DNA of 21,410 bases, from IMG/VR virus record IMGVR_UViG_3300045988_119030, positions 1 to 21,410 of that record; one strand, written 5' to 3'. A program made the position numbers and the translations under genes. Origin of the DNA: a virus. Positions 1 through 18,720 of the stretch are shown here, one piece after another; the first letter of the stretch is position 1, and each line of letters opens with the position of its first letter. The notes below the pieces were generated by a model. That model saw nothing but the letters and a program-made list of their open reading frames with translations. It was not told where the DNA came from and did no database searches.

Positions 1-30
1 TTTAATTTTCCCCTTTCATTTGATACGTTA

Positions 31-59
31 AGTATAGCAGAATAAAAGGCTTTTGTCAA
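31..59 (-). promoter_or_regulatory. sigma-A type promoter TTGACA-N17-TGcTATACT. Drives a leftward gene whose start lies beyond the left edge of the window.
   Basis: Minus strand reads gggcTTGACAaaagccttttattcTGcTATACT, followed by RBS GAAAGGGGA at the window edge. The -35 sits in a small hairpin GGCTT/AAGCC. Confidence 0.55.
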
Positions 60-64
60 GCCCT

Positions 65-538
65 TTATTCAAGATTTTTGCTTTCCGCGACAAAATATTT
101 TGCTTCATACTGATTGGCGATAGCCTTGACTTTTGCGCTTTCCTTTTGGGTCGCGCAGTAAAAATTGAAAAGCGTATGCTTATCGCTCAATTCAATGTAA
201 GAATGTGGAACGTCATGCAAATCAAAATCAATGGTGTTAGTGTATTTTGTCGGGACGGTAAGCTCGACTTTCCATAATTTATCTTTGCGGGCTTTCTCTT
301 CAATCCATTTGACAAGGTAAACGCCTATGAAATTACAAACGGCAGTAATAGCCATTTTTAACCAAATAGGCATACCGTCCGCGGAAGTCAGCACAATCAC
401 ATAGGAATAAAAACCATAAGTGATAGCGTTGATAAGAGACGCGCTAACTTTTCCGCCGTTGACAGTCAAAATGCTTTTGATAGTTGACAGAATCACATTC
501 ACCGCCGTGCAAAGCGCGAACAGAAGAATTGTATTCAT
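65..538 (-). CDS. early membrane protein. N-terminal ~3 TM helices; the ORF-track start at 547 is GTG and the ATG at 538 is the likelier start
   Basis: Intact ORF. RBS AGGAAAGGGTGA 9 nt upstream of the ATG. Hydrophobic N-terminal segments. Own promoter at 568-596. Confidence 0.6.
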   Translation of the reverse strand: MNTILLFALCTAVNVILSTIKSILTVNGGKVSASLINAITYGFYSYVIVLTSADGMPIWLKMAITAVCNFIGVYLVKWIEEKARKDKLWKVELTVPTKYTNTIDFDLHDVPHSYIELSDKHTLFNFYCATQKESAKVKAIANQYEAKYFVAESKNLE

Positions 539-567
539 TATTATCACCCTTTCCTTTTTCTATTATA

Positions 568-596
568 ATAATATCATATTATAATAGAAATGTCAA
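568..596 (-). promoter_or_regulatory. promoter TTGACA-N17-TGaTATTAT for gene 65-538
   Basis: Minus strand reads ctctctaTTGACAtttctattataatatgaTATTAT. AT-rich UP-like region upstream. Confidence 0.5.
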
Positions 597-762
597 TAGA
601 GAGTTTTTAATTTACTCTTTTAATTTTTCTAATAGGTCATCAGCACATTCATAGCTGATGCTTCTGCGGCCGCACTCATTGGACAAAGGACAACAAGCGC
701 AGTCGTTAAAGGTTTCCGTCCAAGCGCGCAACCACTCAATTAAACATAAAACATTAACTCTT

Positions 763-1107
763 TCACCCATTATTATCATTCTCCTTTACTCGGACAAAAA
801 AGACCTTGTTATAGATTTTCGTTGCTTTGGGGTCAATCCAGAAATACACATTACCGCATACTCGATAGATTTTACAAGTTTCTTCACTAACCTTTTTGAC
901 TTCTTCAAATTTCTCTGGCGTGGTGGGGTGGAAAACCGTCAGTTTGAGGAATATGCAATAGAAAGCCAAAGGAACGAAGCCGATAATCATAGCAATCCAT
1001 GCGAGAACATCAGTTAAAGTGTTTTCCCAATCACACCACTCATCGGTGATTGTAGCGAACGCAATACCCACGCAGAACGCGAGAATCAACCAATACCATG
1101 CCACCAT
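763..1107 (-). CDS. early small membrane protein (2 predicted TM helices, 114 aa)
   Basis: ORF with strong RBS AAAGGGGGAAT-N6-ATG. Hydrophobic stretches. Preferred over the overlapping plus ORF 658-1017 because of the RBS and same-strand operon context. Confidence 0.6.
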   Translation of the reverse strand: MVAWYWLILAFCVGIAFATITDEWCDWENTLTDVLAWIAMIIGFVPLAFYCIFLKLTVFHPTTPEKFEEVKKVSEETCKIYRVCGNVYFWIDPKATKIYNKVFFVRVKENDNNG

Positions 1108-1137
1108 TATTTTATTCCCCCTTTATTTGTTGTATAC

Positions 1138-1166
1138 ATATTACCACATTATAGGATTTTTGTCTA
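1138..1166 (-). promoter_or_regulatory. proximal promoter TAGACA-N17-TGgTAATAT for 763-1107
   Basis: Minus strand reads aaTAGACAaaaatcctataatgtggTAATAT. Confidence 0.4.
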
Positions 1167-1226
1167 TTGGTATTTTACACAAAAATTCGTGCGAAAATTT
1201 GTTGAATCTACCTCTTGACAAAAAAC

Positions 1227-1255
1227 TCGGCGCGCCACAATCGTCCGCGCGCCGA
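1227..1255 (-). promoter_or_regulatory. GC-rich hairpin (TCGGCGCGC-N11-GCGCGCCGA) with a minus-strand U-tract, sitting between tandem promoters in the leader of 763-1107. Terminator or attenuator-like.
   Basis: aaaaaacTCGGCGCGCcacaatcgtccGCGCGCCGAcaatttt. Same AAAACTCGGCGCG lead-in as hairpin 6073-6097. Confidence 0.45.
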
Positions 1256-1257
1256 CA

Positions 1258-1286
1258 ATTTTATCACATTCAAGGAACTTTGTCAA
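1258..1286 (-). promoter_or_regulatory. promoter TTGACA-N17-TAAAAT (distal promoter for 763-1107). Its start site falls at the base of GC hairpin 1227-1255.
   Basis: Minus strand reads cactaTTGACAaagttccttgaatgtgaTAAAAT. Confidence 0.45.
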
Positions 1287-1299
1287 TAGTGAAAGTAAA

Positions 1300-1326
1300 C
1301 AAAAAAAATCACCCAATTTGGGTGAT
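1300..1326 (-). terminator. rho-independent terminator after 1334-1507
   Basis: Stem ATCACCCAA/TTGGGTGAT, then T8 on the minus strand. Confidence 0.65.
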
Positions 1327-1333
1327 TTTTCAT

Positions 1334-1507
1334 TTAGTTTTCTACGGCTTCGAGGTCGACGAGGATGGGAACGAGCTTGTCTTCAAGAAGCGAAACACGT
1401 TCAAGCATTTCGTCCATTTCATCAGGGGAAAAATGCTTCTGAATACCATAGCGCGCCATCGCGCAAACTTTTACAACAACCTCGCTGAGCTTTTCCTTAT
1501 TTTCCAT
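1334..1507 (-). CDS. hypothetical small acidic protein. The ATG at 1507 has RBS GGAGAT-N7; the ORF-track start at 1522 is also possible.
   Basis: ORF plus RBS. The terminator at 1300-1326 follows immediately downstream. Confidence 0.5.
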   Translation of the reverse strand: MENKEKLSEVVVKVCAMARYGIQKHFSPDEMDEMLERVSLLEDKLVPILVDLEAVEN

Positions 1508-1618
1508 TTTTCTTATCTCCATTCAATTTATTTTTTGGAAAGGGTGGCGGTTGTTTCAGGCACAACCGCCAAAGCCATAGGAAAGGGGGAGAAAAACACG
1601 AACAAAAGTTCGGTTTTG

Positions 1619-1858
1619 TCAAGGGATAATCAGTTCTGCGTCATAGACAGGCCGAACCATGCAGGGCGAGCCAAAGCAGTCGAGATTGTAAGTGTCCAAA
1701 TTGAGAGCGTTCCATTCTTCTGCGCCGGTATCTTCATCAACCACAGTCGCGATTTTGATGTAATAGACGTTTCCAGAAGCGGGGTCTTGAAAAATCATAC
1801 CCTCGGGAAGGTCTTCAAATGCAACCATTTTGTTGCTATGCTTAACAGTAATTTTCAT
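1619..1858 (-). CDS. hypothetical protein (~79 aa). The track start at 1867 is GTG; the ATG at 1858 has RBS AAAGGGTGA.
   Basis: ORF. The TGA stop of upstream gene 1864-2217 lies inside this RBS (translational coupling). Confidence 0.55.
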   Translation of the reverse strand: MKITVKHSNKMVAFEDLPEGMIFQDPASGNVYYIKIATVVDEDTGAEEWNALNLDTYNLDCFGSPCMVRPVYDAELIIP

Positions 1859-1863
1859 TTCGT

Positions 1864-2217
1864 TCACCCTTTATAATAGTATTTGTAAGCCCATTCGATA
1901 ATTTCATGGCTTGTGGTAGTCCATTCTTCTTTGGGACTATCGAACTTTTCCGCATACTTTTTGATGTAGTTATTATACTCCATGCGTGCGGTGTCGTATG
2001 CTCCAATAGCCACAATTAAAGCGTGCTTCGCTTCTTCGGCATCAGAGACGGCTTTCTTGCGGTCGGGGCAGTCAGGATAGAGGTTAATCACCCCTACGCG
2101 CGTAATGACTTGCCTTGTCTTTTCATAAAGGCGGTCGCGCGTTTCCCATACTTCATAAAGCTCATCGTCCGCGCGTTTTTCATATGGGTTGAAAGGCTTC
2201 TTTTTCTTACCGAACAT
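1864..2217 (-). CDS. hypothetical protein (~117 aa, starting MFGKKKK...). The long N-terminal extension in the ORF track (to 2469) is probably not translated.
   Basis: RBS AAAGGAG-N10-ATG at 2217. The ATG overlaps the TAA stop of upstream gene 2207-2545 (ATGTTCGGTAA). Confidence 0.5.
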   Translation of the reverse strand: MFGKKKKPFNPYEKRADDELYEVWETRDRLYEKTRQVITRVGVINLYPDCPDRKKAVSDAEEAKHALIVAIGAYDTARMEYNNYIKKYAEKFDSPKEEWTTTSHEIIEWAYKYYYKG

Positions 2218-2545
2218 TTTTCTTTTTCTCCTTTTCTTGCTTATTCCACATTCTATCAAAGAACGCATTTGCGAGGACACGCTTGTAAAGGTTGTCAGGC
2301 ATGGGGCGCTCGCCGTGCTTGTTTCTCCATATCGCGGTGATTTTATCAATATCCGCGATATAGGCTGTAATGAGTGTGCCATCGGAAGCGCTACGAACGA
2401 GAAGAACACCTGTTGTAGTGATAGTGTAGAGAATATCGTCCTCAACGCTGTCGATATATGGTTCGCCAATTCCTACATTATCGTAGATGAAGAGCAGGCG
2501 GTCAATGCGGTCTTGCGTGGCATGTTTTGACATTTTGATAAGCAT
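2207..2545 (-). CDS. hypothetical protein (~112 aa, starting MLIKMSKH...)
   Basis: RBS AAAGAGGT-N7-ATG at 2545. Promoter at 2583-2611 immediately upstream. Confidence 0.55.
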   Translation of the reverse strand: MLIKMSKHATQDRIDRLLFIYDNVGIGEPYIDSVEDDILYTITTTGVLLVRSASDGTLITAYIADIDKITAIWRNKHGERPMPDNLYKRVLANAFFDRMWNKQEKEKKKNVR

Positions 2546-2582
2546 TTGTTTTACCTCTTTCTTTTCCTCTTGGATTGATTGT

Positions 2583-2611
2583 ATTATACCATATGGGGAG
2601 GGGCTTGTCAA
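2583..2611 (-). promoter_or_regulatory. promoter TTGACA-N17-TGgTATAAT for 2207-2545. The -35 lies at the centre of palindrome GGGGCTTGTCAAGCCCC (2600-2616).
   Basis: Minus strand reads aggggcTTGACAagcccctccccatatggTATAAT. Confidence 0.6.
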
Positions 2612-2617
2612 GCCCCT

Positions 2618-2767
2618 TTAATACAATTGTTCCCCATCGTGGTAGCGCTCATATTCCGCTTCAAGGAAGTCGAGAATAGTTTCAAAGTCGTCTGCGTCTG
2701 CGGGGTCGGCAAAGACCTTTTCAAAGACTTCGTTAGTGTGCCAATTGTGAACTCGAACAATATCCAT
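2618..2767 (-). CDS. small acidic protein, 49 aa (MDIVRVHNWHTNEVFEKVFADPADADDFETILDFLEAEYERYHDGEQLY). Not in the ORF track because under 60 aa.
   Basis: RBS AAGAAAGAGGTAAG-N-ATG. Sits between promoter 2798-2826 and the terminator/promoter palindrome at 2600-2616. Confidence 0.5.
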   Translation of the reverse strand: MDIVRVHNWHTNEVFEKVFADPADADDFETILDFLEAEYERYHDGEQLY

Positions 2768-2797
2768 TTTACTTACCTCTTTCTTGATTGTATATGT

Positions 2798-2826
2798 ATT
2801 ATATCATGCGAAAGGGCTTTTGTCAA
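2798..2826 (-). promoter_or_regulatory. promoter TTGACA-N17-TATAAT for small gene 2618-2767. The -35 is inside hairpin AAGGGCTT/AAGCCCTT (2813-2833).
   Basis: Minus strand reads aaagggcTTGACAaaagccctttcgcatgaTATAAT. Confidence 0.6.
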
Positions 2827-2844
2827 GCCCTTTTTCTTATTTTT

Positions 2845-3200
2845 TTATTCTTTTTCTCGAATGGAATAATAAACCTTATTCCCTCGCGGTCTGCGTTTGA
2901 GTTTATGGTCGAGGTATAACTGCATACAATACCAAGTGAATTTGCCGTTGGCATACTCATAGCCATACTTTTTGAATGCCATAAACTGCATTTCAGTCGG
3001 CGTGATAGGTCTGCCCGCCTCATTCAGCAGTTCAAAGACGAGTTTAATCATCTGCTGTTTTTTCCATTCGCGTTCCTCGCGGTCGGCTTTTAAGTCTCTT
3101 TCATACTTGTCGCAAGCGTGTTCCGCGATACTCAGATCAATGGGCGAGAGAGCGCCGACGCGATGGCCTTTTTCAAAACTTCATAAATATCCTTATTCAT
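2845..3200 (-). CDS. hypothetical protein with an apparent -1 frameshift at an A5 run (plus-strand T5 at 3169-3173). The upstream frame gives MNKDIYEVLKK..., the downstream frame continues GHRVGALSPIDL...MIKLVFELL...SIREKE (~118 aa if joined).
   Basis: RBS AAAGGAAAGGGG-N7-ATG at 3200 and promoter at 3231-3259 serve the 5' frame. The long 3' frame has no start or RBS of its own. The two frames join cleanly at G_AAA_AAG. Confidence 0.45.
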
Positions 3201-3230
3201 TGTAGTTCCCCTTTCCTTTACTATACCTGT

Positions 3231-3259
3231 ATTATATCATCTACTTCTGGATTTGTCAA
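3231..3259 (-). promoter_or_regulatory. promoter TTGACA-N17-TATAAT for 2845-3200
   Basis: Minus strand reads aaaagcccTTGACAaatccagaagtagatgaTATAAT. Preceded by terminator 3273-3297. Confidence 0.6.
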
Positions 3260-3272
3260 GGGCTTTTTGGAA

Positions 3273-3297
3273 AAAGAGGGAAAAATTTTCCCTCTTT
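3273..3297 (-). terminator. rho-independent terminator after 3300-3572
   Basis: Stem AGAGGGAAAA/TTTTCCCTCT, then T5. Confidence 0.6.
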
Positions 3298-3299
3298 AT

Positions 3300-3572
3300 T
3301 TATCCCCAATAGACCGAAAGAACGTTGTCAATGTAGCTGGCTTTATAACCATAATTCTGCATGATATCTTTGCAAGCCTGCCTGACCTTCTTGTCATTTA
3401 ATGAAGCAAGATTACACTCGTAAAGTGTTTCGCCCGTTCCTGCCACTCGCTCAATTTCTGGCATGATGTGGTCTTCGATGAACGCCCGCGCGAGGGCATT
3501 ATTTTTAGCTTGAATTTCTTTGCGAACTTCTTCGGCTTTGCGCGTCATTTCATAAGCATATTTAATTTCCAT
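3300..3572 (-). CDS. hypothetical protein (90 aa)
   Basis: ORF. RBS AAAGGAAAGGGAGAT. Promoter at 3605-3633 embedded in a terminator palindrome. Confidence 0.6.
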   Translation of the reverse strand: MEIKYAYEMTRKAEEVRKEIQAKNNALARAFIEDHIMPEIERVAGTGETLYECNLASLNDKKVRQACKDIMQNYGYKASYIDNVLSVYWG

Positions 3573-3604
3573 GTTGTTATCTCCCTTTCCTTTATTGTAT
3601 CTTT

Positions 3605-3633
3605 ATTATAGCATAGAGGGCTTGTTTTGTCAA
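3605..3633 (-). promoter_or_regulatory. promoter TTGACA-N17-TGcTATAAT for 3300-3572. The -35 is inside hairpin AGAGGGCTTG/CAAGCCCTCT (3617-3642).
   Basis: Minus strand reads agagggcTTGACAaaacaagccctctatgcTATAAT. Confidence 0.6.
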
Positions 3634-3651
3634 GCCCTCTATTTAATTTTT

Positions 3652-3960
3652 TTAGCAGTAGGCCAGATTCCCGCGCGCCCAGCCATATACGCTGATTTGA
3701 TTGCACGCCTTGCCGATTTCAAGCGCCTGCTTCTTGGTCTGCACCCTCTTGGACTTGTCAACATAATAAATGCCGTTCGCAAGCCACACACCGCAGTTTC
3801 CGCCGAAGTCCTTAACCGCGTTGATAGCTTCGCGGGCGGTCTTACATTCAACGCCGTTGGTAGCGACCTGCCAGCCGGACTTGTAGTTGACTTTCTTGCC
3901 ATATTTGAGGGTCATGCCGTCGTTTTCAACGAGCTTACGAATAGAACGAATGTTAATCAT
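3652..3960 (-). CDS. hypothetical protein (~102 aa, starting MINIRSIRKL...). The ORF-track N-terminal extension to 4122 is probably 5' leader.
   Basis: RBS AAAGGGAT-N7-ATG at 3960. Two promoters lie upstream in the leader, at 4012-4040 and 4132-4160. Confidence 0.5.
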   Translation of the reverse strand: MINIRSIRKLVENDGMTLKYGKKVNYKSGWQVATNGVECKTAREAINAVKDFGGNCGVWLANGIYYVDKSKRVQTKKQALEIGKACNQISVYGWARGNLAYC

Positions 3961-4011
3961 GTTGTTATCCCTTTCCGGTTTGGTAGGTTTTCCTTCCCTT
4001 ACTGTGATTAT

Positions 4012-4040
4012 AGTATAGCACCGATTCGGGATTCTGTCTA
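4012..4040 (-). promoter_or_regulatory. proximal promoter TAGACA-N17-TGcTATACT for 3652-3960
   Basis: Minus strand reads aaTAGACAgaatcccgaatcggTGcTATACT. Confidence 0.45.
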
Positions 4041-4101
4041 TTGACATTATGCACAAACTTTCGCCATAAAAATTGTTGAACTTGCCTATTGACACAAAAT
4101 T

Positions 4102-4128
4102 CCGGCCGTGCCTGGCGTGCACGGCCGG
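4102..4128 (-). promoter_or_regulatory. GC-rich hairpin (CCGGCCGTGC-N7-GCACGGCCGG) between tandem promoters in the leader of 3652-3960
   Basis: Perfect 10-bp stem. Sits directly after the -10 of promoter 4132-4160. Confidence 0.45.
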
Positions 4129-4131
4129 CCG

Positions 4132-4160
4132 ATTATATCATAAAGTTTTGAAATTGTCAA
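4132..4160 (-). promoter_or_regulatory. distal promoter TTGACA-N17-TgaTATAAT for 3652-3960. GC hairpin 4102-4128 sits immediately downstream.
   Basis: Minus strand reads gcctaTTGACAatttcaaaactttatgaTATAAT. Preceded by terminator AAAAATCTCCCCAAAAATGGGGAGATTTTTTT (4168-4199). Confidence 0.5.
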
Positions 4161-4167
4161 TAGGCAA

Positions 4168-4199
4168 AATATACAAAAAAATCTCCCCATTTTTGGGGA
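4168..4199 (-). terminator. rho-independent terminator after 4225-4473
   Basis: AAAAATCTCCCCAAAAATGGGGAGATTTTTTT. Confidence 0.6.
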
Positions 4200-4224
4200 G
4201 ATTTTTAATTCAAAAAATTTAATT

Positions 4225-4473
4225 TTAGCCATCAACACAAATAATGAGAACGTCATCTTTGGCTTTCAAACCGCTGACCGGCAGTCCCAGCACCCATTCT
4301 TCACTTGCGCCCAAAACATCACCATTCAGAGTCATGCGACCTTTGCGGTCTTTGAGATAGCGACCGCAAGTGTTTTCATTTATCACTTCAATGCCGTTCC
4401 CCTCATAGAACATCAGCGCGCCCTTTACCAGACCAATCACATTTTTAACCATGCCCAAAGTCATTTTTGTCAA
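4225..4473 (-). CDS. hypothetical small beta-rich protein (82 aa). By eye it weakly resembles EutN/CcmL-family barrel proteins (…GASEEWVLGLPVSGLKA…). Unverified.
   Basis: ORF. RBS GAAAGAAG. Promoter at 4514-4542. Terminator at 4564-4597 upstream. Confidence 0.55.
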   Translation of the reverse strand: MTKMTLGMVKNVIGLVKGALMFYEGNGIEVINENTCGRYLKDRKGRMTLNGDVLGASEEWVLGLPVSGLKAKDDVLIICVDG

Positions 4474-4513
4474 CTTCTTTCGTCTTTAATATCGTTCCTC
4501 TTGGAACAATTAT

Positions 4514-4542
4514 AGTATAGCACAAGGTATAACAAAAATCAA
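4514..4542 (-). promoter_or_regulatory. promoter TTGATT-N17-TGcTATACT for 4225-4473
   Basis: Minus strand reads cctaTTGATTtttgttataccttgTGcTATACT. Confidence 0.55.
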
Positions 4543-4563
4543 TAGGTAAAATGTATAAAAAAC

Positions 4564-4597
4564 TCGGCAGGATTTTGTGTATCCTGCCGAGTTTTTT
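4564..4597. terminator. bidirectional intrinsic terminator (A-run, stem CTCGGCAGG/CCTGCCGAG, T7). Terminates 4597-4791 on the minus strand.
   Basis: aaaaaaCTCGGCAGGattttgtgtatCCTGCCGAGttttttt. Confidence 0.65.
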
Positions 4598-4791
4598 TAC
4601 TCTTCCCAACTCTCGATGACTTCACCGGTCATTGCGTCGATAATGTCAACCGAGAGGACGTTGTCCGCGTCCATAAACTTCTGTCCGAGGGCATATGCAT
4701 TTTCCTGTCCCGCGACAGACACTTCATAGCGATAGCGATTATTATCGCCAGCTTTGTAATTGTAGTAGTTAACAGAAACAATAAATAACAT
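4597..4791 (-). CDS. hypothetical protein (64 aa)
   Basis: ORF. RBS AAAGGGGAT-N7-ATG. Promoter at 4822-4849 (TTGACA-N16-TGgTATAAT). Confidence 0.6.
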   Translation of the reverse strand: MLFIVSVNYYNYKAGDNNRYRYEVSVAGQENAYALGQKFMDADNVLSVDIIDAMTGEVIESWEE

Positions 4792-4821
4792 TTGGTTTAT
4801 CCCCTTTCTTTTTATACTCTT

Positions 4822-4849
4822 ATTATACCATAGTTTCGGGATTTGTCAA
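4822..4849 (-). promoter_or_regulatory. promoter TTGACA-N16-TGgTATAAT for 4597-4791
   Basis: Minus strand reads cctaTTGACAaatcccgaaactaTGgTATAAT. Confidence 0.6.
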
Positions 4850-4877
4850 TAGGTTTTTTGAAAAAAGTTTGAAAAAA

Positions 4878-4901
4878 GATTGGAGCATTACTGCTCCAAT
4901 C
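4878..4901 (-). terminator. terminator after 4888-5163. The stop codon is in the loop.
   Basis: GATTGGAGCA-gtaa-TGCTCCAATC, then T6 on the minus strand. Confidence 0.6.
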
Positions 4902-5163
4902 TATTCACCGGATAGTCGATTGGTTTAACCTCAATCGGCGAGTTAGCCCAGTCATAGGAAACGCGGAAAAATTCAGCACAGTGGTAACTAAAATCAGCCC
5001 AGCCAAAAGTCGCAAGATGCGATTTCCAATCTCTGAAATATGGTTCTAATTCTTGCGTGATATAGAGCGTTTCTTCGAGCCGGTCTAAAAGTTTTTCATT
5101 CTTCGCCACATGGAAAACTGCGGTGGTCTTAGTCTCAGCGTCGGTGATGATGTATGTTTTCAT
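4888..5163 (-). CDS. hypothetical protein (~91 aa, starting MKTYIITDAE...)
   Basis: RBS AAAAGGAGC-N7-ATG at 5163. Promoter at 5194-5221. The last codons plus TAA lie in the terminator hairpin at 4878-4901. Confidence 0.55.
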   Translation of the reverse strand: MKTYIITDAETKTTAVFHVAKNEKLLDRLEETLYITQELEPYFRDWKSHLATFGWADFSYHCAEFFRVSYDWANSPIEVKPIDYPVNRLEQ

Positions 5164-5193
5164 TTGAAAAGCTCCTTTTCTTTTGATACTACC

Positions 5194-5221
5194 ATTATAG
5201 CACACTTTTGGAATTTGTCAA
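5194..5221 (-). promoter_or_regulatory. promoter TTGACA-N16-TGcTATAAT for 4888-5163
   Basis: Minus strand reads ccctaTTGACAaattccaaaagtgTGcTATAAT. Confidence 0.6.
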
Positions 5222-5239
5222 TAGGGAAAATGAAAAAAA

Positions 5240-5261
5240 AGAGAAGTTTTTCAACTTCTCT
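5240..5261 (-). terminator. terminator after small peptide gene 5251-5355
   Basis: AGAGAAGTT-gaaa-AACTTCTCT flanked by an A8 / T8 run. Confidence 0.6.
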
Positions 5262-5355
5262 TTTTCAGTTTCTTTTCTGCCCATTCAATGAGTGCGCCCG
5301 CGCCGATTGTCCCAAAGTAAATGAAAAGTAAAACTAAACCGTCATGCGTGCTCAT
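5251..5355 (-). CDS. small hydrophobic peptide, 34 aa (MSTHDGLVLLFIYFGTIGAGALIEWAEKKLKKRS). Single TM helix plus basic tail. Not in the ORF track.
   Basis: RBS GGAGG-N8-ATG. The ATG begins 1 nt after the TAA of upstream gene 5356-5484 (TAAATG). Its TGA stop lies inside the terminator at 5240-5261. Confidence 0.5.
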   Translation of the reverse strand: MSTHDGLVLLFIYFGTIGAGALIEWAEKKLKKRS

Positions 5356-5484
5356 TTAATATTCCTCCACATACTCTGTAAAAACAAGCTCCCAGTCAGG
5401 GCCAAGATCCGGAGCTTTGCAGTATCGCGACTGTCGAATGTCATGCTCATTAGTGATTTTGTTGATAAACTCGAATTCATACAT
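5356..5484 (-). CDS. hypothetical small protein (~42 aa, starting MYEFEFINK...)
   Basis: RBS AAAAGGAGAT-N8-ATG at 5484. Promoter at 5517-5545. Confidence 0.45.
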   Translation of the reverse strand: MYEFEFINKITNEHDIRQSRYCKAPDLGPDWELVFTEYVEEY

Positions 5485-5516
5485 TTTTATTATCTCCTTT
5501 TTTTTACTGTACCAAT

Positions 5517-5545
5517 AGTATAGCAGATAATAGGGCATTTGTCAA
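5517..5545 (-). promoter_or_regulatory. promoter TTGACA-N17-TGcTATACT for 5356-5484 and 5251-5355
   Basis: Minus strand reads ggtaTTGACAaatgccctattatcTGcTATACT. Confidence 0.55.
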
Positions 5546-5562
5546 TACCATTTATAAAAAAA

Positions 5563-5588
5563 ATGTACGAGGTTTAATCCTCGTACAT
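5563..5588 (-). terminator. terminator after 5574-5870. The stop codon is in the loop.
   Basis: ATGTACGAGG-attaaa-CCTCGTACAT, then T8 on the minus strand. Confidence 0.6.
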
Positions 5589-5870
5589 TTCCATTAACGA
5601 TTTGATTTTTTCGATTGTATTTTCAATTTCTTCTACATAGTCGGTTTGCTCCTCACTTGCGCGCATGGCCTGTTCATATGCGTCATAGATAGTTTCGCAC
5701 TGTTCACGGGTGTAGTCTTCTTCTGGAGCGTGTTCCATGGTGACGACTGCTGTCCAAGCGAGCGTTTCTTTATCGTCAAGGTCATCGGCTTTTTCCGCGG
5801 CAGTGGCAAGCTCATGTTCGAGGCGCGTCTTTTCGAGCGAGAGGGTCTTGAGAAAATCCTTATTAGTCAT
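5574..5870 (-). CDS. hypothetical acidic protein (~98 aa, starting MTNKDFLK...)
   Basis: RBS AAAAGGAGAT-N8-ATG at 5870. Promoter at 5903-5930. Stop codon in the loop of terminator 5563-5588. Confidence 0.55.
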   Translation of the reverse strand: MTNKDFLKTLSLEKTRLEHELATAAEKADDLDDKETLAWTAVVTMEHAPEEDYTREQCETIYDAYEQAMRASEEQTDYVEEIENTIEKIKSLMEMYED

Positions 5871-5902
5871 TGTGGTGTATCTCCTTTTCATTTGATGCCT
5901 TT

Positions 5903-5930
5903 ATTATACCACTTCTGGACTGAATGTCAA
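5903..5930 (-). promoter_or_regulatory. promoter TTGACA-N16-TGgTATAAT for 5574-5870
   Basis: Minus strand reads cctaTTGACAttcagtccagaagTGgTATAAT. The iteron cluster lies immediately upstream. Confidence 0.6.
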
Positions 5931-6022
5931 TAGGTTTTTGAAAAAAATATTTATTCATCAGGGCTGTATAAATATTCATGTATAAATATTCATTTTCGGG
6001 TGTATAAAGGCGACTGGCATAA

Positions 6023-6053
6023 TGCACAAAATGGTTTCAAAATTTTTGTGCAA
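6023..6053. promoter_or_regulatory. palindrome TGCACAAAA-N13-TTTTGTGCA. Candidate operator.
   Basis: aaTGCACAAAAtggtttcaaaattTTTTGTGCAat. The same half-site recurs at 7694-7739 and 4050-4057. Confidence 0.5.
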
Positions 6054-6072
6054 TATAACTATTGCAAAACTC

Positions 6073-6097
6073 GGCGCGCTGCGGCCCACAGCGCGCC
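6073..6097 (-). promoter_or_regulatory. GC-rich hairpin (GGCGCGCTG-N7-CAGCGCGCC) with a short minus-strand U-tract, embedded in the iteron/palindrome region
   Basis: aaaactcGGCGCGCTGcggcccaCAGCGCGCCggcc. Confidence 0.4.
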
Positions 6098-6179
6098 GGC
6101 CAAATGCATATGTATGATTATTCATGTATATTCATTGCATATTCATTGTATATTTATTCATACATAATATGCGAAAATA

Positions 6180-6204
6180 GAGAGAGACTTAATAAGCCTC
6201 TCTC
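6180..6204 (-). terminator. hairpin terminator overlapping the stop of 6189-6554
   Basis: GAGAGAG-N11-CTCTCTC, followed on the minus strand by TATTTTCGC. Modest U-tract. Confidence 0.4.
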
Positions 6205-6554
6205 CATACCTTGATTATTTCATCATCTGCTATATCATCTGTGTCATTGTCGTTTATCCACAAAAGCAGAAAATCATTATCATCAATGGTCATATTCTCA
6301 ACTTCCCATTGGTTGCCGCGTTCGTCCAGTAGCGTGATGGTGTTACCATTTCGGGAAGCGACCTCTGCACCGATAAAGCGTATGCTTCCTCTCTCTGTAC
6401 CAGCGCCACACCATTCATCTAATGCGGTGAGGTCATAGGACTGCGGCGCTTCCTCACAGGCTTCCGCGGTTGTGTGGTCGTGGAATGGGCCGAAGAAAGA
6501 CACGGAGAGAATGATGGCAATGGCCATGGTGATGATTTTGGAAACGTTTTTCAT
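6189..6554 (-). CDS. predicted secreted protein (121 aa). The N-terminus looks like a signal peptide (MKNVSKIITMAIAIILSVSFFG…AEA); mature part acidic.
   Basis: ORF. RBS AAGAAAGAGGTAAAAC-ATG. Terminator hairpin at 6180-6204 overlaps the stop. Confidence 0.55.
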   Translation of the reverse strand: MKNVSKIITMAIAIILSVSFFGPFHDHTTAEACEEAPQSYDLTALDEWCGAGTERGSIRFIGAEVASRNGNTITLLDERGNQWEVENMTIDDNDFLLLWINDNDTDDIADDEIIKVWREAY

Positions 6555-6576
6555 TTTGTTTTACCTCTTTCTTACT

Positions 6577-6720
6577 TTATAGGTTAGTAGCGATAGTGAC
6601 AACAGCAATAAGCATGAGCGTGCTTGAGACAGCTTTACCTACATTCTTGCTATCTATGGCATAGACAAAATTATATGCGCTTATAGCAGTAAGCACAATG
6701 ATAGCGGCGATGATAGACAT
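6577..6720 (-). CDS. small membrane protein, 47 aa, 2 hydrophobic segments (MSIIAAIIVLTAISAYNFVYAIDSKNVGKAVSSTLMLIAVVTIATNL). Not in the ORF track.
   Basis: RBS AGAGGGGAG-N8-ATG. Lies between 6751-7224 and 6189-6554 on the same strand. Confidence 0.45.
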   Translation of the reverse strand: MSIIAAIIVLTAISAYNFVYAIDSKNVGKAVSSTLMLIAVVTIATNL

Positions 6721-6750
6721 GGCATATGCTCCCCTCTTTGAGCGAGTGGG

Positions 6751-7224
6751 TTAAACCCACTCGCTGAATAGCTCGCTGATGAAGTCATCGTGGACATCAT
6801 CAGGCAGTTGGTCGATGGTACACTCATAGGTGCTTACCACGGTAAGCGATGAGCCATTTTCAAGGTTCTCGCGCTCAAACTTATCCCGTTCACCAGATGA
6901 AAGAAAAAATGCGGTATAATCGTAAGTGTCTTCTCCATCATTGATGGAATAATCCACCACCTTAAAGCGCATCTTGTTCCAGAGGTTCGCTATGATGGAA
7001 AGATCCATAGCCAGCTCTTCCTCGCGGCGGACAGCTTCGAGAGACGCCTTATACTTGCGCCATGCGGCTACCGTAAAGTCTCTTATGCCGCACCCGATAA
7101 GACAATGGTATTCCTCTAAGTCTTTGATAACCAGTTTGCGTCCCTCGCGCACCATATCCCAAGCATCTTCTGCCATTGCGTTGATGGTGACAGCATCATA
7201 TTTATGCAAGCCCTGAATTTTCAT
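6751..7224 (-). CDS. hypothetical protein (157 aa)
   Basis: ORF. RBS GGAAGGG. The TAA stop sits in the loop of hairpin GCGAGTGGGTT/AACCCACTCGC (6741-6766). Confidence 0.55.
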   Translation of the reverse strand: MKIQGLHKYDAVTINAMAEDAWDMVREGRKLVIKDLEEYHCLIGCGIRDFTVAAWRKYKASLEAVRREEELAMDLSIIANLWNKMRFKVVDYSINDGEDTYDYTAFFLSSGERDKFERENLENGSSLTVVSTYECTIDQLPDDVHDDFISELFSEWV

Positions 7225-7305
7225 TGTATAGCCCTTCCGCGCTTTTTGCGCTATCGTGTTATATGTAGGTATGTTCCCCCATGTGGGGAGTGAGGGCTTG
7301 CGCCC

Positions 7306-7599
7306 TCACTTTGCAATCTTTGTAGTAACGGAAGCCGCACGCGGCGCGCCAGTCTTCTTGTACTTATCAAAGCACTCGGCGTAGAGTTTCGGCGCTTTGT
7401 TGCGGAACATCACCGTGTCGAGCGTTTCAGTAGCCTTGCCACCCTTGCCAACAATAACAGTAAACTTATTGTAAGTAAAGGTAACGCTTTCGCCGTTAGC
7501 TTCCTCGCGGGCTTCTGCCTTGAGCAATTCTAACTGTTCCTTGAGCGCGTCTATCTGCGCGGAAATCTCGCACATTTTTTTAATTTTATTGTTCGTCAT
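7306..7599 (-). CDS. hypothetical protein (97 aa). First gene of the leftward module.
   Basis: ORF. RBS GAGGAT. The TGA stop lies within terminator stem GTGAGGGC/GCCCTCAC (7291-7312). Confidence 0.55.
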   Translation of the reverse strand: MTNNKIKKMCEISAQIDALKEQLELLKAEAREEANGESVTFTYNKFTVIVGKGGKATETLDTVMFRNKAPKLYAECFDKYKKTGAPRAASVTTKIAK

Positions 7600-7693
7600 T
7601 TTTGAATCCTCATTTCATGCAATTTACTGTTCGGTGTTCCGCCGTTCAGCATGGTTACATGGTAGCAGATTCAGCCACGGAATACAATTGACA

Positions 7694-7739
7694 GATTGCA
7701 CAAAGATTTGTTTTGTACGGGGCGGGTTTTTGTGCAATC
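7694..7739. promoter_or_regulatory. palindrome GATTGCACAAA-N24-TTTGTGCAATC. Second copy of the candidate operator.
   Basis: Perfect 11-bp arms. Lies in the 400-bp noncoding region upstream of the first leftward gene. Confidence 0.5.
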
Positions 7740-7777
7740 TACCGCCGGGCGGCACCCTTGCATCATACCTTTGCATT

Positions 7778-7801
7778 TTTATTCACTCAAAAATGAATAA
7801 A
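7778..7801. repeat. inverted repeat TTTATTCA-N8-TGAATAAA (the iteron motif in palindromic arrangement)
   Basis: ttTTTATTCActcaaaaaTGAATAAAac. Confidence 0.45.
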
Positions 7802-7895
7802 ACCTGCATAGAGGGGGGTGTATTTCGGGAAAAATAAATTTTTATTTATCGTTTTTTCTTTTGCCTGGTCAAAACACAATCTAAATCAATTTTCA

Positions 7896-7935
7896 ATTTC
7901 AAATCACGAAATAATTTAAAATTTCAAATTACGAC
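7896..7935. repeat. imperfect direct repeat ATTTCAAAT(C/T)ACGA(A/C) x2, spaced 25 bp
   Basis: ATTTCAAATCACGAA at 7896-7910. ATTTCAAATTACGAC at 7921-7935. Confidence 0.4.
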
Positions 7936-8025
7936 TTCTTTTTTCTACCTCTTTTAGGCTTCTCACCCCACATAAAAGTGTATAATCCAGAAGTAGCAGA
8001 ATATGTAGCTTTCTGCTGATACTTT

Positions 8026-8421
8026 TTAGCAGCTGCTTTCAAGGGGTTGAGGGGTTTCCGCATTTAATTTTTCCTCCATATATTCGATTAATTTATCTTT
8101 ATATTTACAACTATCAATATATCTATTAATAGTATCTATATCATATTTTTCCATTAAGTGCTCTAATACATATTTGTATTTATTTAACTGATATTCTTCT
8201 TGTTCTTCTTTAGTGCTTAATTGGGCCTTTTCCGCGTCTGATAAAGGTTTATAAGTAATTGTTCTTGACCCATTATCCTTTTGCTCAATACGTATTGTTT
8301 TAAATAATTTCCAATCTCTTACAAAAGGATCTTTATCTCTTGTGGCGTTAAAATATTCTTGTTCTAATCTAAATATTACTGCGTCTATCCCTCTTACTTC
8401 AAAAGGCTGGTTCCGCCTCAT
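8026..8421 (-). CDS. hypothetical protein, AT-rich (~131 aa from MRRNQPFEV...). The track start at 8454 is also possible.
   Basis: ORF. Internal RBS GGGAGG-N9-ATG at 8421. Confidence 0.45.
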   Translation of the reverse strand: MRRNQPFEVRGIDAVIFRLEQEYFNATRDKDPFVRDWKLFKTIRIEQKDNGSRTITYKPLSDAEKAQLSTKEEQEEYQLNKYKYVLEHLMEKYDIDTINRYIDSCKYKDKLIEYMEEKLNAETPQPLESSC

Positions 8422-8638
8422 TTTCAATATCCTCCCATTCAAATGTTCCATCATCTAATTCATATACAAATGCCTGTTTATAGAATGATGAAACAATTCC
8501 ATCATTTGCGATTCCTTTTGGACTATTTTTCGCATCATGGAAACAATTATAAACAATTAGTCCTTGCGTTTCATATCGCGAAAAATCTACTGCCCTTCCC
8601 TCAAAATCATAATTATAAAATATGTTTAACAATAGCAT
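8399..8638 (-). CDS. hypothetical protein (79 aa), AT-rich. Overlaps the start of 8026-8421.
   Basis: ORF. A leftward promoter candidate at 8821-8849 gives a long leader. Confidence 0.4.
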   Translation of the reverse strand: MLLLNIFYNYDFEGRAVDFSRYETQGLIVYNCFHDAKNSPKGIANDGIVSSFYKQAFVYELDDGTFEWEDIENEAEPAF

Positions 8639-8677
8639 ACACTCATATTGTGCGATTGGCCATTTATTTAATTCTTT

Positions 8678-8705
8678 TTGCTAATTTGCCATTTTTTGGT
8701 ATAAT
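8678..8705 (+). promoter_or_regulatory. candidate rightward promoter TTGCTA-N16-TGgTATAAT upstream of a 10-codon ORF (8746-8778) with RBS AAAGGAG
   Basis: Plus strand reads tttTTGCTAatttgccatttttTGgTATAAT. Confidence 0.3.
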
Positions 8706-8820
8706 ACCCAAAAGGCTTTTCTATATAACCATAAAAAAAGGAGTGATGCTACTAATGCACAACTCAATAATACAATAAAAATAATTTCCATAAATACTCT
8801 TTTTCTTTTTTCTTATAATA

Positions 8821-8849
8821 ATAATAAAATAAAAAATAAGAAATGTCAA
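8821..8849 (-). promoter_or_regulatory. candidate leftward promoter TTGACA-N17-TATTAT for 8399-8638 / 8026-8421. Divergent from the rightward promoter.
   Basis: Minus strand reads cgacTTGACAtttcttattttttatttTATTAT. Long AT-rich leader. Confidence 0.35.
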
Positions 8850-8931: not shown

Positions 8932-8960
8932 TTGACAAAAAAAATTTTTTCGAGTATAAT
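8932..8960 (+). promoter_or_regulatory. consensus promoter TTGACA-N17-TATAAT for the first rightward gene (8985-10040)
   Basis: Plus strand reads aaacTTGACAaaaaaaattttttcgagTATAAT. GGAGG RBS and ATG 25 nt downstream. A-rich upstream. Confidence 0.6.
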
Positions 8961-8984: not shown

Positions 8985-10040
8985 ATGATAAAACTTGATT
9001 ATTCTTTACAAACTCCAGAAGAAAGAAATCAATTAGTCGAACAAATTTTGGCTGATAATCCAGATCCGCCTGAAAAGTATTTAGAAATTTTAGCAGACTA
9101 TTTGGTTCTTTGTATGGAGAAACAAGAAAAAAAGGAGAAAAAATTATTAACTGATAATCGTATGGCTACAGTTAATAAGCGTGAGACTTCTTTTGAAGGT
9201 CTTGTTTCCCAACTCGAAAATGGCGAAGATGGAATTTATAATTTAATTACAGATAATAGAAATACAATATTTCAACCACATATTACAATTACAAAAAAAG
9301 ATTTAGAAGAGATACCAAGTTTAAATTAGTTAAGAGAAGCCATTAATGTTTGGGAGGCTAAATTAAAAGTAACAGAAGGAAAAGATGCTTTTGTTATTAA
9401 AAAGGCTCTTATTGAAATGCGTAAAGATTAGTATGTTATGAAAAATGCTTATCGTCGTCCAATAGTGCCTACAAAATTAACCAGATCAAAGTCTTATATT
9501 CCATTAGATGATAAAACATTTATTTTTGATGATGATGGTTTTCCCATTCCTGATGGAATTAGTTTATTAAGACCTGAAATATGTTCTGCGGTTTTATGTA
9601 ATTATTCCCGACTAAAACAAGATAGTTGGGGCGAATATGATAAAGATTTATGGTATTTAATGGAGGATTTTGATAAGCTTTGTGATAAAGCCTTAGCTAA
9701 TTATCCTCTTTATGATAGAATCGTTGAATATAAAATTGATGGTTTACAAAATATTGACATTCAAGAGAAAATACAAATGGAATTTGGTATTAAACATAGT
9801 CTTGAATATATTTCAAGTTTATGGCGTAATAAAATTCCAAAATTAATTGCTTCGACTGCGGAAGATGAATATTTAGATAATTATTATTTAAATGTTGAAA
9901 AAGGTAAATATAAAAAATGTAGTCGTTGTGGTAAAATAAAATTAGCTCATAATAAATATTTTAGTAAAAATAAAACAAGTAAAGATGGCTTTTATAGTAT
10001 TTGTAAAAGTTGTCGAAATTCTAAGGCCAAAAAATCTTAA
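8985..10040 (+). CDS. zinc-ribbon protein (352 aa if TAG is read through). Two in-frame TAGs at 9327-9329 and 9432-9434. C-terminal CxxC…CxxC motif. Function unknown.
   Basis: Single frame 8985-10040, interrupted only by TAG and ending in TAA. Consensus promoter at 8932-8960. RBS GGAGG-N6-ATG. Confidence 0.6.
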
Positions 10041-10089
10041 TGTTGTCCTTTTGTTTATAATAAATAGTTGAAAGGAGAATATTTTATTT

Positions 10090-11277
10090 ATGGCTGAAAC
10101 ATATTATTGCGAAAAATGTAATCGCACAATGAATGGCACGGAATTCTATTCATCTAATAATTTAGAAAAATATCCTAATGATGGTAAATTTCCTGTGTGC
10201 AAAAAATGTATGACAATGCACGTCGATAATTGGAATCCAGATACTTATTTATGGATTTTACAAGAAGCGGATGTTCCTTATGTTCCAGATGAATGGAATA
10301 AATTAATGGAAAAATATGGGCGCGATCCGCAGTCTATGACCGGTATGACGATTCTTGGACGTTATTTGTCAAAAATGAAACTCAAATAGTTTAAAGATTA
10401 TCGTTGGAAAGATACAGAATTTTTATAGTAGATGGCGAATAATAAATTAGAGCAAACTATGAAGCGTCAAGGATATGATGCTCAATAGATTGCAACCGCT
10501 ATTAAAAAAAGTTCTATTGCTATTCCAGAAGGAGAACTAAAAGAGCCGGTTTATGCTCCACCGCCTAATGCCCCTACGGAAGATTATTTTGCACAATAGA
10601 GTGGTGAAGTTGAACAAGAATTAGACTTAACTGATGAAGACCGCACTTATTTAAGACTTAAATGGGGCAAGACTTATAAACCTGAAGAATGGGTTAAGCT
10701 TGAATAGTTGTATGAAGAAATGATGGCTTCTTATGATATTCAAGGTGCCGGACATAAAGATACGCTAAAATTAATATGTAAGACATCTTTAAAGGCAAAT
10801 CAATTGATCGATATTGGTGATATTGAAGGTTTCCAAAAGATGAGCAAAGTATACGATAGCTTGATGAAGTCTGGTAAATTTACTGCTGCTCAAAATAAAG
10901 CAGAATCAGGTGAATTTGTTGATTCAATTGGCGAATTAATTGAATTATGTGAAAAAGAAGGATATATTGAAAGATATTATGTTGAATAGCCACATGATAA
11001 AGTGGATTTAACTATTCAAGATATGCAACGTTATACTCGCACTCTTATTGAAGATGAAACTAATATCAGCACAATGGTAGAAAAAGCTTTGCGCGAAAAT
11101 GCTAAAGAAGATGAAGAGAAAGCAAAGAACGCGGAAAGCGATATCGTTGATGATGCTGATTTAAGTATTGAAGAACTTGAAAAAACTATTAAAGATAGTG
11201 ATTACGCGGATTTTGAGGAATTTAAAGAATAGGAGTCCGCGCAAGATAATGAGTTCTTATAGAGTTTGGATAAATAA
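10090..11277 (+). CDS. protein with N-terminal CxxC…CxxC zinc ribbon (~395 aa). Nine in-frame TAGs including tandem TAG-TAG at 10431-10436. Possibly small terminase or another DNA-packaging protein by position.
   Basis: One continuous frame joining ORFs 10090-10389, 10708-10989 and 11002-11232. All interruptions are TAG. The TAA stop overlaps the terL ATG (TAATG). Confidence 0.5.
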
Positions 11278-13016: not shown

Positions 13017-13028
13017 GGAGGGTGGAAA

Positions 13029-13385
13029 ATGCGTGCTTCAAGAGGAGAAATTAAAATTGAAGAAATCTTAGAAGAAGCAGGACTACCTTTTAAAATGGAA
13101 TATATTTTTCCAGATTTAAAAAGCCCAAGCGGGCGTCCGCTTCGTTTTGATTTTGTTATATTTGATGATGATGGAAAAATTGATTTCATTATTGAGTATT
13201 AGGGAAAATAGCATTATGAAGCCAGTTCTAAATTTGGTGGAAAACGCGGTTTATACCAGTAGCAATATAATGATAATCAAAAAAGACGTTTTTGCGCTTT
13301 ACATGATTTTAGATTAATAGAGATTCCATATACCGACGAAAACCTTATTTCTTATGATTATATAATGAAATTAGCAGGTTATTAA
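13029..13385 (+). CDS. Vsr/DUF559-like endonuclease-fold protein (118 aa; restriction-endonuclease-like fold). Probably a free-standing homing-type endonuclease. Three in-frame TAGs.
   Basis: RBS AAGGAGGG-N6-ATG. Motif RPLRFDFVIF…IDFIIEY*GK*HY resembles the DUF559 …DF…iE.DG.QH signature. This is from memory, not a search. Confidence 0.5.
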
Positions 13386-13398
13386 AGGAGGTGGAACT

Positions 13399-15048: not shown

Positions 15049-15057
15049 GGAGGATTT

Positions 15058-16641: not shown

Positions 16642-16658
16642 TAAGGAGGACATACTAA

Positions 16659-17576: not shown

Positions 17577-17593
17577 GAAAGGAGAAAAGGATA

Positions 17594-18700: not shown

Positions 18701-18720
18701 TTTAATATAAATTATTCCAT

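Follow-up and report, generated by a model that had tools for sequence, protein, structure and literature searches.

A PeSL-like cassette array of small, probably early genes in an uncultivated Firmicutes-type phage with TAG-recoded late genes

The DNA analyzed here (IMG/VR virus record IMGVR_UViG_3300045988_119030, positions 1 to 21,410; the whole stretch of 21,410 nucleotides is called the window) comes from an uncultivated phage of ~190 kb, which is very common judging by the homologues of one of its genes, g22. An earlier note, made from the letters alone, had described positions 1-8000 as a host-takeover-like early module of tiny leftward genes. We read this region, with a probability of about 0.7, as the sigma-gene-proximal part of a ~16.5-kb hyperplastic array of early-gene cassettes, carried by a gut-Firmicutes phage in whose late genes TAG stands for glutamine. 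The kind of early region is known and the setting is new: the array is best classed with the PeSL (promoter-early stem-loop) regions of T4-type phages, which it resembles, but it lies in a phage of genetic code 15. The anatomy of an early region read by the primary-sigma RNA polymerase of the host is supported by the near-consensus extended -10 promoters, the short leaders with strong ribosome-binding sites (RBS), the small ORFans and the terminators predicted here; from this anatomy we infer early expression and host-directed functions of the products.

The phage was placed by its TerL, which is 44-47% identical to those of the Enterococcus phages VRE9_4, H1 and EF1, of Geobacillus virus E3 and of phAss-1 (the "code 15 clade" of NCBI), and ~33% identical to those of SPbeta-like and large Bacillus siphoviruses. 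These affinities point to a Firmicutes-type phage, in keeping with the style of its promoters and RBS. Neither half of the window had a megablast match among 50,697 phage records, and in Rfam nothing came near any gathering score. Comparisons were made within the TerL clade, including a close set of 17 relatives with ~97-99% TerL identity, 15 of which have loci that reach the module.

Only the proximal ~7.7-7.8 kb of the array, on the side of the sigma-like gene (1..7800, minus strand), are carried by the window. A contig of 190,642 bp from the European Nucleotide Archive (ENA), L161 (ERZ27260930 k119_3975), is identical to the window over 1..7818 and reaches 9,281 nt past its left edge; there the whole array comprises 37 called genes and 29 strong co-directional promoters over 14.4 kb, with low-GC sequence on both flanks. 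The extent proposed earlier, 1-8000, therefore has to be corrected on the left, where the array runs 9.3 kb past the window edge. In composition the array is a GC island, with a GC content of 0.38-0.47 and a GC content at third codon positions (GC3) of ~0.5, as against a GC content of 0.27-0.30 (positions 8000-10000) and a GC3 of ~0.2 in the adjacent backbone. The sharp step of ~15 GC points at ~7800 (7750-7900), with a GC of ~0.43 to its left, coincides with the border between variable array and conserved backbone, and alignments with close relatives turn from patchy to continuous at 7506-7896, clustered at 7798-7813. Each of the 49 full loci of the TerL clade, in which TerL identity goes down to 67%, shows this architecture: to the left of the sigma-like gene stand 6-18 strong promoters directed leftward, and array GC is raised by 5-20 points though the array DNA is no longer alignable. 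Extended loci of close relatives hold 25-37 promoters over 16-19 kb. Clade-wide, mean GC3 is 0.47 in array open reading frames (ORFs) versus 0.29 in late ORFs.

Promoters were sought as TTGACA-N16-18-TATAAT, scored over 12 positions, with 300 Markov simulations of the same 8 kb as the null. The minus strand of 1..8000 holds 12 sites scoring 11-12/12 (N16/17), eight of them perfect and all 12 with a TG extended -10, while the simulations averaged 0.22 such sites, with a maximum of two. Three weaker minus-strand sites with TG (9-10/12, first bases 4542, 4040 and 1166) bring the total to 15, so the at least 15 near-consensus promoters counted in the earlier note are borne out, as is the A/T-rich upstream region it mentioned (73% A+T on average in the 24 nt immediately upstream of the -35 versus 58% for the module). 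No site of 11-12/12 quality was found on the plus strand of 1..8000, and the 12.5-kb rightward late region shows no promoter enrichment (66 found, 57.8 expected), with a single perfect site at 8932. A gene could be assigned to 13 promoters, 12 of which lie within the array, and in 11 of the 13 the start codon is 30-38 nt from the -10. An own promoter for almost every one to two genes, as claimed before, holds with this regular geometry for most units but not for g01-g04 and g19. We also noticed three tandem strong promoters with an exact spacing of 139 bp (18743, 18882 and 19021 in L161, also in L082 and L084) at the distal end of the array, by which point GC is back at backbone level.

The minus strand of 1..7600 carries 21 intact ORFs of 34-157 amino acids (aa) between 65 and 7599, each with a Shine-Dalgarno sequence, and one frameshifted gene, g13; the ~22 tiny leftward genes seen earlier are thus confirmed. 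In comparisons with relatives, codon position 3 takes 52-93% of the substitutions in all 21 intact ORFs, which marks them as real coding genes, and the confident AlphaFold models of two array proteins, g11 and g22 (predicted local distance difference test, pLDDT, of 94), were also counted as support for this. The break in g13 is present in two independent assemblies as well (L161 and L163), and the gene is intact, with 118 aa, in L083, L007 and L091.

Folding of the 3' regions predicts ~10 hairpin and U-tract terminators of -9.5 to -28 kcal/mol, after g04, g05, g07, g08, g09, g10, g12, g18, g19 and g22, so that the units spanning g05-g10 (4225..5870) are each closed by one; a simple terminator scan found 18 where 9.1 were expected. 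A predicted terminator stands after most transcription units (about two thirds of the genes), and the terminator said to follow almost every unit is to that extent present; four further unit-end hairpins are stable. Hairpins and promoters are intertwined. The -35 hexamer lies within a hairpin at the promoters at 59, 2611, 2826 and 3633, a hairpin stands upstream of those at 4160, 4542, 4849, 5221, 5545 and 1286, and one follows the -10 at 4160 and 1286. Five repeat families (D1-D5, 29-65 nt) cover the hairpin, the -35, the -10 and the RBS, and those that include the terminator tail are 47-65 nt long.

The last two promoters belong to a composite element, present in two copies in the window (Table 1), in which a strong promoter, P1, is followed by a GC hairpin, a short U tract and a second, weaker promoter, P2. 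It recurs at 11049, 13928, 16470 and 18743 of L161, and a hairpin-only relative is found at 6098..6066 of the window. Among 24 diverse copies, which had been pre-selected by folding energy, compensatory changes occur in five of the eight stem pairs (95.8% paired versus 74% in shuffles). Three of the L161 copies have a perfect convergent promoter 60-95 nt downstream, aimed back into the hairpin.

How the array evolves was read from the close relatives. Whereas the late 12.5-kb region is 100% alignable in the 17 relatives, only 30-87% of the module is alignable in the 15 loci that reach it, and gene by gene a patchwork is seen, with 90-100% identity, or 40-70% (a different allele), or no gene at all. 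The homology breakpoints, taken as ends of high-scoring segment pairs, fall in non-coding spacers in 75 of 99 cases, although spacers make up 28% of the sequence, and 89 of 99 lie within 15 nt of non-coding DNA; as the relatives are not independent samples a binomial P for these counts is overstated, but the distinct breakpoint positions agree all the same. The breakpoints pile up at 2606-2622, 2831-2835, 3206-3259, 3587-3604, 4866-4889, 6179, 6573 and 7798-7813, which are promoter/terminator units and the junction of array and backbone. The cassette of g10 provides a clear example. In the window it stands between two copies of a ~25-nt repeat (TTTTTTnTAnATTTTnCCTATTGA) made of terminator tail and -35; L006 and L002 lack it, and a promoter of the 4160 type there follows immediately on the g09 terminator. 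The alignments show that whole cassettes are gained, lost or replaced as the array evolves, via recombination in the repeated terminator/promoter sequences as at the PeSL motifs of T4-type phages, and phages with near-identical virion genes therefore carry different gene sets.

Conservation of the small ORFs, on which the earlier note had let its reading depend, is mixed. In clade members whose TerL identity is below 90%, the only array genes that could be detected are g04, g11, g15, g16 and g22, and the others are present, absent or replaced even at 97-99% TerL identity; an accessory, fast-turnover arsenal therefore fits better than a fixed takeover programme. Throughout a wide clade g22 keeps its slot at 5-10 kb from the sigma-like gene, but its own identity is only 70% in phages with a 99% identical sigma gene, and this allele swap, with the decay of g13, argues for dispensable, exchangeable cargo.

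The closest match to this organization is the PeSL hyperplastic region of T4-type phages. A PeSL consists of a strong host-type promoter with a stem-loop upstream of the -35, over the -35, between the boxes or after the -10 (PMC2839356, PMC4122927), and PeSLs flank ORFans in hyperplastic regions, where they mediate modular shuffling (Arbiol et al. 2010, PMC2839356; Comeau et al. 2014, PMC4122927). A further trait of such regions is the release of cassettes as mini-circles when neighboring motifs recombine. As in PeSL regions, promoter and stem-loop motifs are repeated in the spacers here, and three placements of the stem-loop are represented, namely before the -35, around the -35 and past the -10; the motifs flank small ORFans where near-identical phages differ, and the ends of indels and replacements lie in the motifs. 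The differences are those of lineage and layout. PeSLs occur in several regions of T4-like myoviruses, whereas the present array is one co-directional block of ~29 units, forming a GC island in a TAG-recoded genome, in a Firmicutes-type phage with an SPbeta/Enterococcus-phage-like TerL and a host of another phylum. Judging by these comparisons, the array probably works like a PeSL region, but by its TerL it does not belong to the T4-type lineage.

The second part of the setting is the genetic code. PHROGs identifies a sigma factor, a terminase and a portal among the rightward genes, and these genes (8985..21318) are whole ORFs only if TAG is read as sense. At the eight TAG sites of TerL the relatives carry CAG or CAA in six, so that the late genes use code 15 with TAG as glutamine. 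Three genes (16659..17576, 17594..18700 and 18787..19380, plus strand), presumably the three most highly expressed structural genes, contain no TAG. Within the array, the 21 intact genes use TAG neither as sense nor as stop (15 TAA and 6 TGA stops), and clade-wide there are 2.2 TAG per 1000 codons in early genes versus 7.7 in late ones. Between array and late genes lie conserved low-GC leftward backbone genes, e01-e04. A TAG separates e01 from e02, and 6 of 34 related loci have CAG or CAA in its place; the two are therefore a single recoded gene of 130 aa, of which only the membrane-like, 36-aa e01 peptide would form before the code switch.

In the published model, recoded phages translate their early genes in the standard code and then switch (bioRxiv 10.1101/2021.08.26.457843), and the contrast between a TAG-free array and TAG-bearing e01-e02 and late genes fits this model. 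Code-15 gut phages have likewise been described to keep early genes in the standard code (bioRxiv 10.1101/2021.08.26.457843; for phAss-1, PMC10607447). They share with the present phage the concentration of in-frame TAG in structural genes, the low-GC backbone and early genes compatible with the standard code, but no dense array of promoter/terminator cassettes and no GC island is described in those papers. No such array was found in the first 26 kb of phAss-1 (TerL 45% identical), nor next to TerL in Geobacillus virus E3 and phAss-1.

Under the favored explanation each unit is a self-contained cassette. A hairpin, usually a predicted terminator, would insulate it from the unit upstream, and its small ORFs, one to three in number, are preceded by a near-consensus extended -10 promoter for the primary sigma factor of the host and by a ~25-nt leader in which the Shine-Dalgarno sequence is strong. 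On entry of the DNA, unmodified host RNA polymerase would fire all array promoters together with no phage factor required, and the messages, being free of TAG and with a GC3 far above the rest of the genome, would be translatable by naive host ribosomes; the raised GC3 may reflect adaptation to the host tRNA pool. Later, a phage suppressor tRNA and the sigma-like factor would shift expression to the recoded, AT-rich late genes. The products, which are small and very acidic, basic, membrane-bound or secreted, would most likely be host-directed accessory factors serving counter-defence, exclusion or shutoff.

A wider version of this explanation, which we put forward tentatively and hold to be the less probable one, has the genome split into two "dialects" and a new regulatory device within the array. 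The host dialect would combine primary-sigma promoters, the standard code, a host-like GC3 and free exchange of cassettes via regulatory repeats, and would house a fast-evolving arsenal for counter-defence and takeover; the phage dialect would comprise the sigma-like factor, TAG as glutamine and AT-rich codons. The device would be the strong promoter with its covarying GC hairpin, in some copies facing a convergent perfect promoter, and could act as a source of tiny sense/antisense RNAs, as an attenuator or as an insulator.

Several observations weigh against the explanation given by the cassette array of a recoded phage. In distant members of the clade ~13% of array ORFs (80/619) hold a TAG, which from its position may be either stop or sense. 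No suppressor tRNA was found in the ~31 kb examined (the window and loci of close relatives), where the only tRNAs are those for Lys and Val in L135. As noted, g01-g04 and g19 have no strong promoter of their own, and the four stable unit-end hairpins after g01, g11, g13 and g15 lack a U tract and may not terminate. The promoters and terminators are predicted, as consensus matches. The array products match no known host-takeover or anti-defence family in Pfam, PHROGs or NCBIfam, and the higher GC could stem from gene flow from GC-richer sources and not from adaptation to host translation.

The alternative nearest to the earlier note, a true SPO1-type host-takeover module, that is, a largely fixed shutoff programme in a terminal repeat that enters the cell first, is in our opinion unlikely. 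The SPO1 module, as far as the 1998 work is cited in PMC6873191, is a terminal region of 12.4 kb whose 26 small early genes have strong promoters and RBS, and on that description it is the closest analogue in a Firmicutes phage: in both regions about two dozen small early genes are clustered, the operons are short, the sigma-A promoters and RBS are strong, and many products have no homologues. The hallmarks of a small early-gene cluster in that source are thus present here, several of the proteins are very acidic and of DNA-mimic type, and g04, g11, g16 and g22 are conserved across the clade. The array described here is, however, about twice as large as the module in that account, without sequence homology to it, and highly variable in content between close relatives. 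No homology to SPO1 gp37-60 or to other characterized early proteins or shutoff families of SPO1, T5 and T7 was found with PHROGs, Pfam or NCBIfam; most genes are present, absent or replaced at 97-99% TerL identity and g13 is a pseudogene. Moreover, two contigs of ~190.6 kb begin at different points, which suggests circular or permuted assemblies and gives no sign of a terminal position. Of the SPO1/T5/T7-like organization proposed earlier, the layout, the promoters, the RBS and the small ORFans resemble SPO1, and the earlier reading is thus supported in part.

Morons, known from lambdoid and other temperate phages, are inserted singly between late genes and are expressed from the prophage. 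They resemble the present units in being autonomous promoter-ORF-terminator units with a composition unlike their surroundings. An array of morons, constitutively expressed from a resident phage (lysogenic or in a carrier state) and conferring exclusion or fitness traits in place of lytic takeover, would explain the own promoter and terminator of each unit, the strain-variable content, the membrane or secreted products (g03, g04, g07, g20 and g22) and the MazE/AbrB-type regulator encoded by the next gene. We consider it even less probable than the SPO1-type module, as ~29 units stand in tandem and co-directionally in one block by the sigma-like gene, in a presumed early region, and are not single insertions in late operons, and as no integrase, repressor, other lysogeny function or host flank was seen in the ~31 kb examined, the contigs looking like free genomes of ~190 kb. 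That the GC-richer block is foreign, by recent horizontal acquisition, mis-assembly or as host DNA beside a prophage, is suggested by the ~15-point GC step at ~7800 and the different codon composition but is very improbable, since the same junction and architecture, flanked on either side by low-GC phage backbone, recur in many samples and in more than 100 independent contigs (for which a chimera or host island was rejected), the raised GC is clade-wide and no bacterial housekeeping genes are present.

Database searches identified no array product. Nothing reached the gathering score in Pfam for 20 of the 21 ORFs (all except the 34-aa g07) and the intact homologue of g13, or the cutoff in NCBIfam for the 10 largest ORFs, and PHROGs, searched with all ORFs except g07 and g21, gave convincing E-values only for families with no assigned function (g01, g05 and g18). 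Below significance are two named PHROGs matches of g01 (E 0.003-0.008) and, below threshold, a PepSY match of g09 (E 0.0017). In the whole array of L161, 2 of 37 called genes have Pfam matches, a MazE/AbrB-like gene of 150 aa that adjoins the window and a weak T5orf172. The statement that no product is recognizable hence stands at the level of family thresholds. The one that several are membrane or secreted proteins also stands, five products having hydrophobic 19-mers (g03, g04, g07, g20 and g22).

Very acidic small proteins are a type that acts as DNA mimics in other phages, and g05 and g15 may by their acidity be of this type. The protein g11, among the best conserved members of the array with 3312 homologues, has a predicted alpha/beta fold that is common to uncharacterized phage proteins and has no PDB counterpart. 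For g22 there are 5,411 database homologues, many of them on contigs of 190-197 kb; it is a conserved anchor gene of the array in the wider clade, with 425 clusters at 50% identity. Its C-terminal domain is PII-like at the fold level, and it gives a sub-threshold match to PRK04164 of NCBIfam (E 0.0014). An assignment of g22 to DUF2179/UPF0316 was unsupported, as 0 of 56 family members match Pfam and a profile search of the PDB was empty.

Table 1. Positions of the array, backbone and late features discussed in the text, from right to left through the array and then along the late genes; promoter scores are out of 12, and TG denotes an extended -10.
Feature	Position	Strand	Description
Promoter of e01-e04	8849..8821	-	
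e01-e02	8791..8399	-	conserved low-GC backbone; one 130-aa gene with in-frame TAG
e03	8421..8026	-	conserved low-GC backbone gene
e04	8063..7929	-	conserved low-GC backbone gene
Array/backbone junction	7600..7928	-	non-coding spacer of 329 nt; GC change here; holds 15-bp inverted repeat
15-bp inverted repeat	7741..7690		core ATTGCACAAA...TTTGTGCAAT; -14.8 kcal/mol; non-coding spacer upstream of g01
g01	7599..7306	-	97 aa; stable hairpin 3'; no strong own promoter found
g02	7224..6751	-	157 aa; net charge -14; no strong own promoter found
g03	6720..6577	-	47 aa; membrane (hydrophobic 19-mer); no strong own promoter found
g04	6554..6189	-	121 aa; signal-like N-terminal hydrophobic segment; net charge -16; terminator 6202..6172; no strong own promoter found
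Promoter of g05	5903..5930	-	12/12, TG
g05	5870..5574	-	98 aa; net charge -18
Promoter of g06-g07	5517..5545	-	11/12, TG
g06	5484..5356	-	42 aa
g07	5355..5251	-	34 aa; membrane (hydrophobic 19-mer)
Promoter of g08	5194..5221	-	12/12, TG
g08	5163..4888	-	91 aa
Promoter of g09	4822..4849	-	12/12, TG
g09	4791..4597	-	64 aa
Promoter of g10	4514..4542	-	TTGATT-17-TATACT, 9/12, TG; at boundary of g10 cassette indel
g10	4464..4225	-	79 aa
Composite element, copy 1	4012..4160	-	P1 4160..4132 (12/12); GC hairpin 4128..4102 at transcript start (-23 kcal/mol); AAUUUU; weaker P2 4040..4012, leading to g11
g11	3960..3652	-	102 aa; net charge +10
Promoter of g12	3605..3642	-	12/12, TG; -35 in loop of hairpin 3' of g11 (-20 kcal/mol)
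g12	3572..3300	-	90 aa
Promoter of g13	3231..3259	-	12/12, TG
g13	3200..2845	-	pseudogene; 1-nt deletion near 3150
Promoter of g15	2798..2834	-	12/12, TG; -35 within hairpin also reading as plus-strand terminator
g15	2767..2618	-	49 aa; net charge -11
Promoter of g16-g17-g18	2583..2617	-	12/12, TG; -35 within hairpin 3' of g15
g16	2545..2207	-	112 aa
g17	2217..1864	-	117 aa
g18	1858..1619	-	79 aa
g19	1507..1334	-	57 aa
Composite element, copy 2	1138..1286	-	P1 1286..1258 (11/12); GC hairpin ~1254..1226 (-19.6 kcal/mol); UUUUUU; P2 1166..1138, leading to g20-g21
g20	1107..763	-	114 aa; 2 hydrophobic segments
g21	770..612	-	52 aa; Cys-rich
Promoter of g22	568..596	-	11/12, TG
g22	538..65	-	157 aa; 3 transmembrane helices and PII/ferredoxin-like domain (predicted)
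Promoter of next gene leftward	31..62	-	150-aa MazE/AbrB-like gene outside window; 11/12, TG; -35 within hairpin 3' of g22
Promoter of sigma-like gene	8932..8960	+	perfect host-type; divergent from array
Sigma-factor-like gene	8985..10040	+	PHROG 5767, E 9e-55; 2 in-frame TAG; heads TAG-recoded structural operon
TerL	11277..13016	+	8 in-frame TAG
Small gene between terminase and portal	13029..13385	+	sub-threshold DUF2726 (nuclease-like) match, E 4.6e-05; 3 in-frame TAG
Portal	13399..15048	+	10 in-frame TAG
Gene 20254..21318	20254..21318	+	9 in-frame TAG

Some features outside the main argument were also recorded. The sigma-like protein ends in a CxxC...CxxC zinc-ribbon segment that also matches HNH/Lar-like families, and a mobile insertion may account for the small gene between terminase and portal. 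In the spacer that separates g04 from g05 (318 nt), six iteron-like copies of ATGAATAWWTATAC lie in 5945..6161 around the 6098..6066 hairpin; the whole window has seven matches to this motif (2.3 expected), six of them in this spacer, which is present in only some relatives. A pair similar to the inverted repeat upstream of g01 occurs at 6053..6022, but the motif shows no overall enrichment. The motif TTGCACAAA was considered as a candidate operator and rejected, as it is not enriched (12 found, 10.4 expected).

Beyond the promoter-rich gene cluster already described in the earlier note, the analysis brings out what that note had missed, namely the shuffling of cassettes at regulatory repeats, the GC island, the code-15 context and the full size of the array. 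PeSL-type modular shuffling, described for T4-like phages that infect Gram-negative hosts, is thereby extended to Firmicutes phages of an unrelated lineage. The array offers a ready set of predicted very strong, insulated promoter, RBS and terminator parts for gut Firmicutes, and it is a compact source of small ORFans, ~40 in each genome and many more if relatives are included, whose strain-variable distribution is the pattern expected of counter-defence or host-manipulation proteins. In these very abundant, uncultivated, recoded gut phages it would define the genes that can be expressed before the code switch, so that the model of an early standard code and a late code 15 becomes testable gene by gene.

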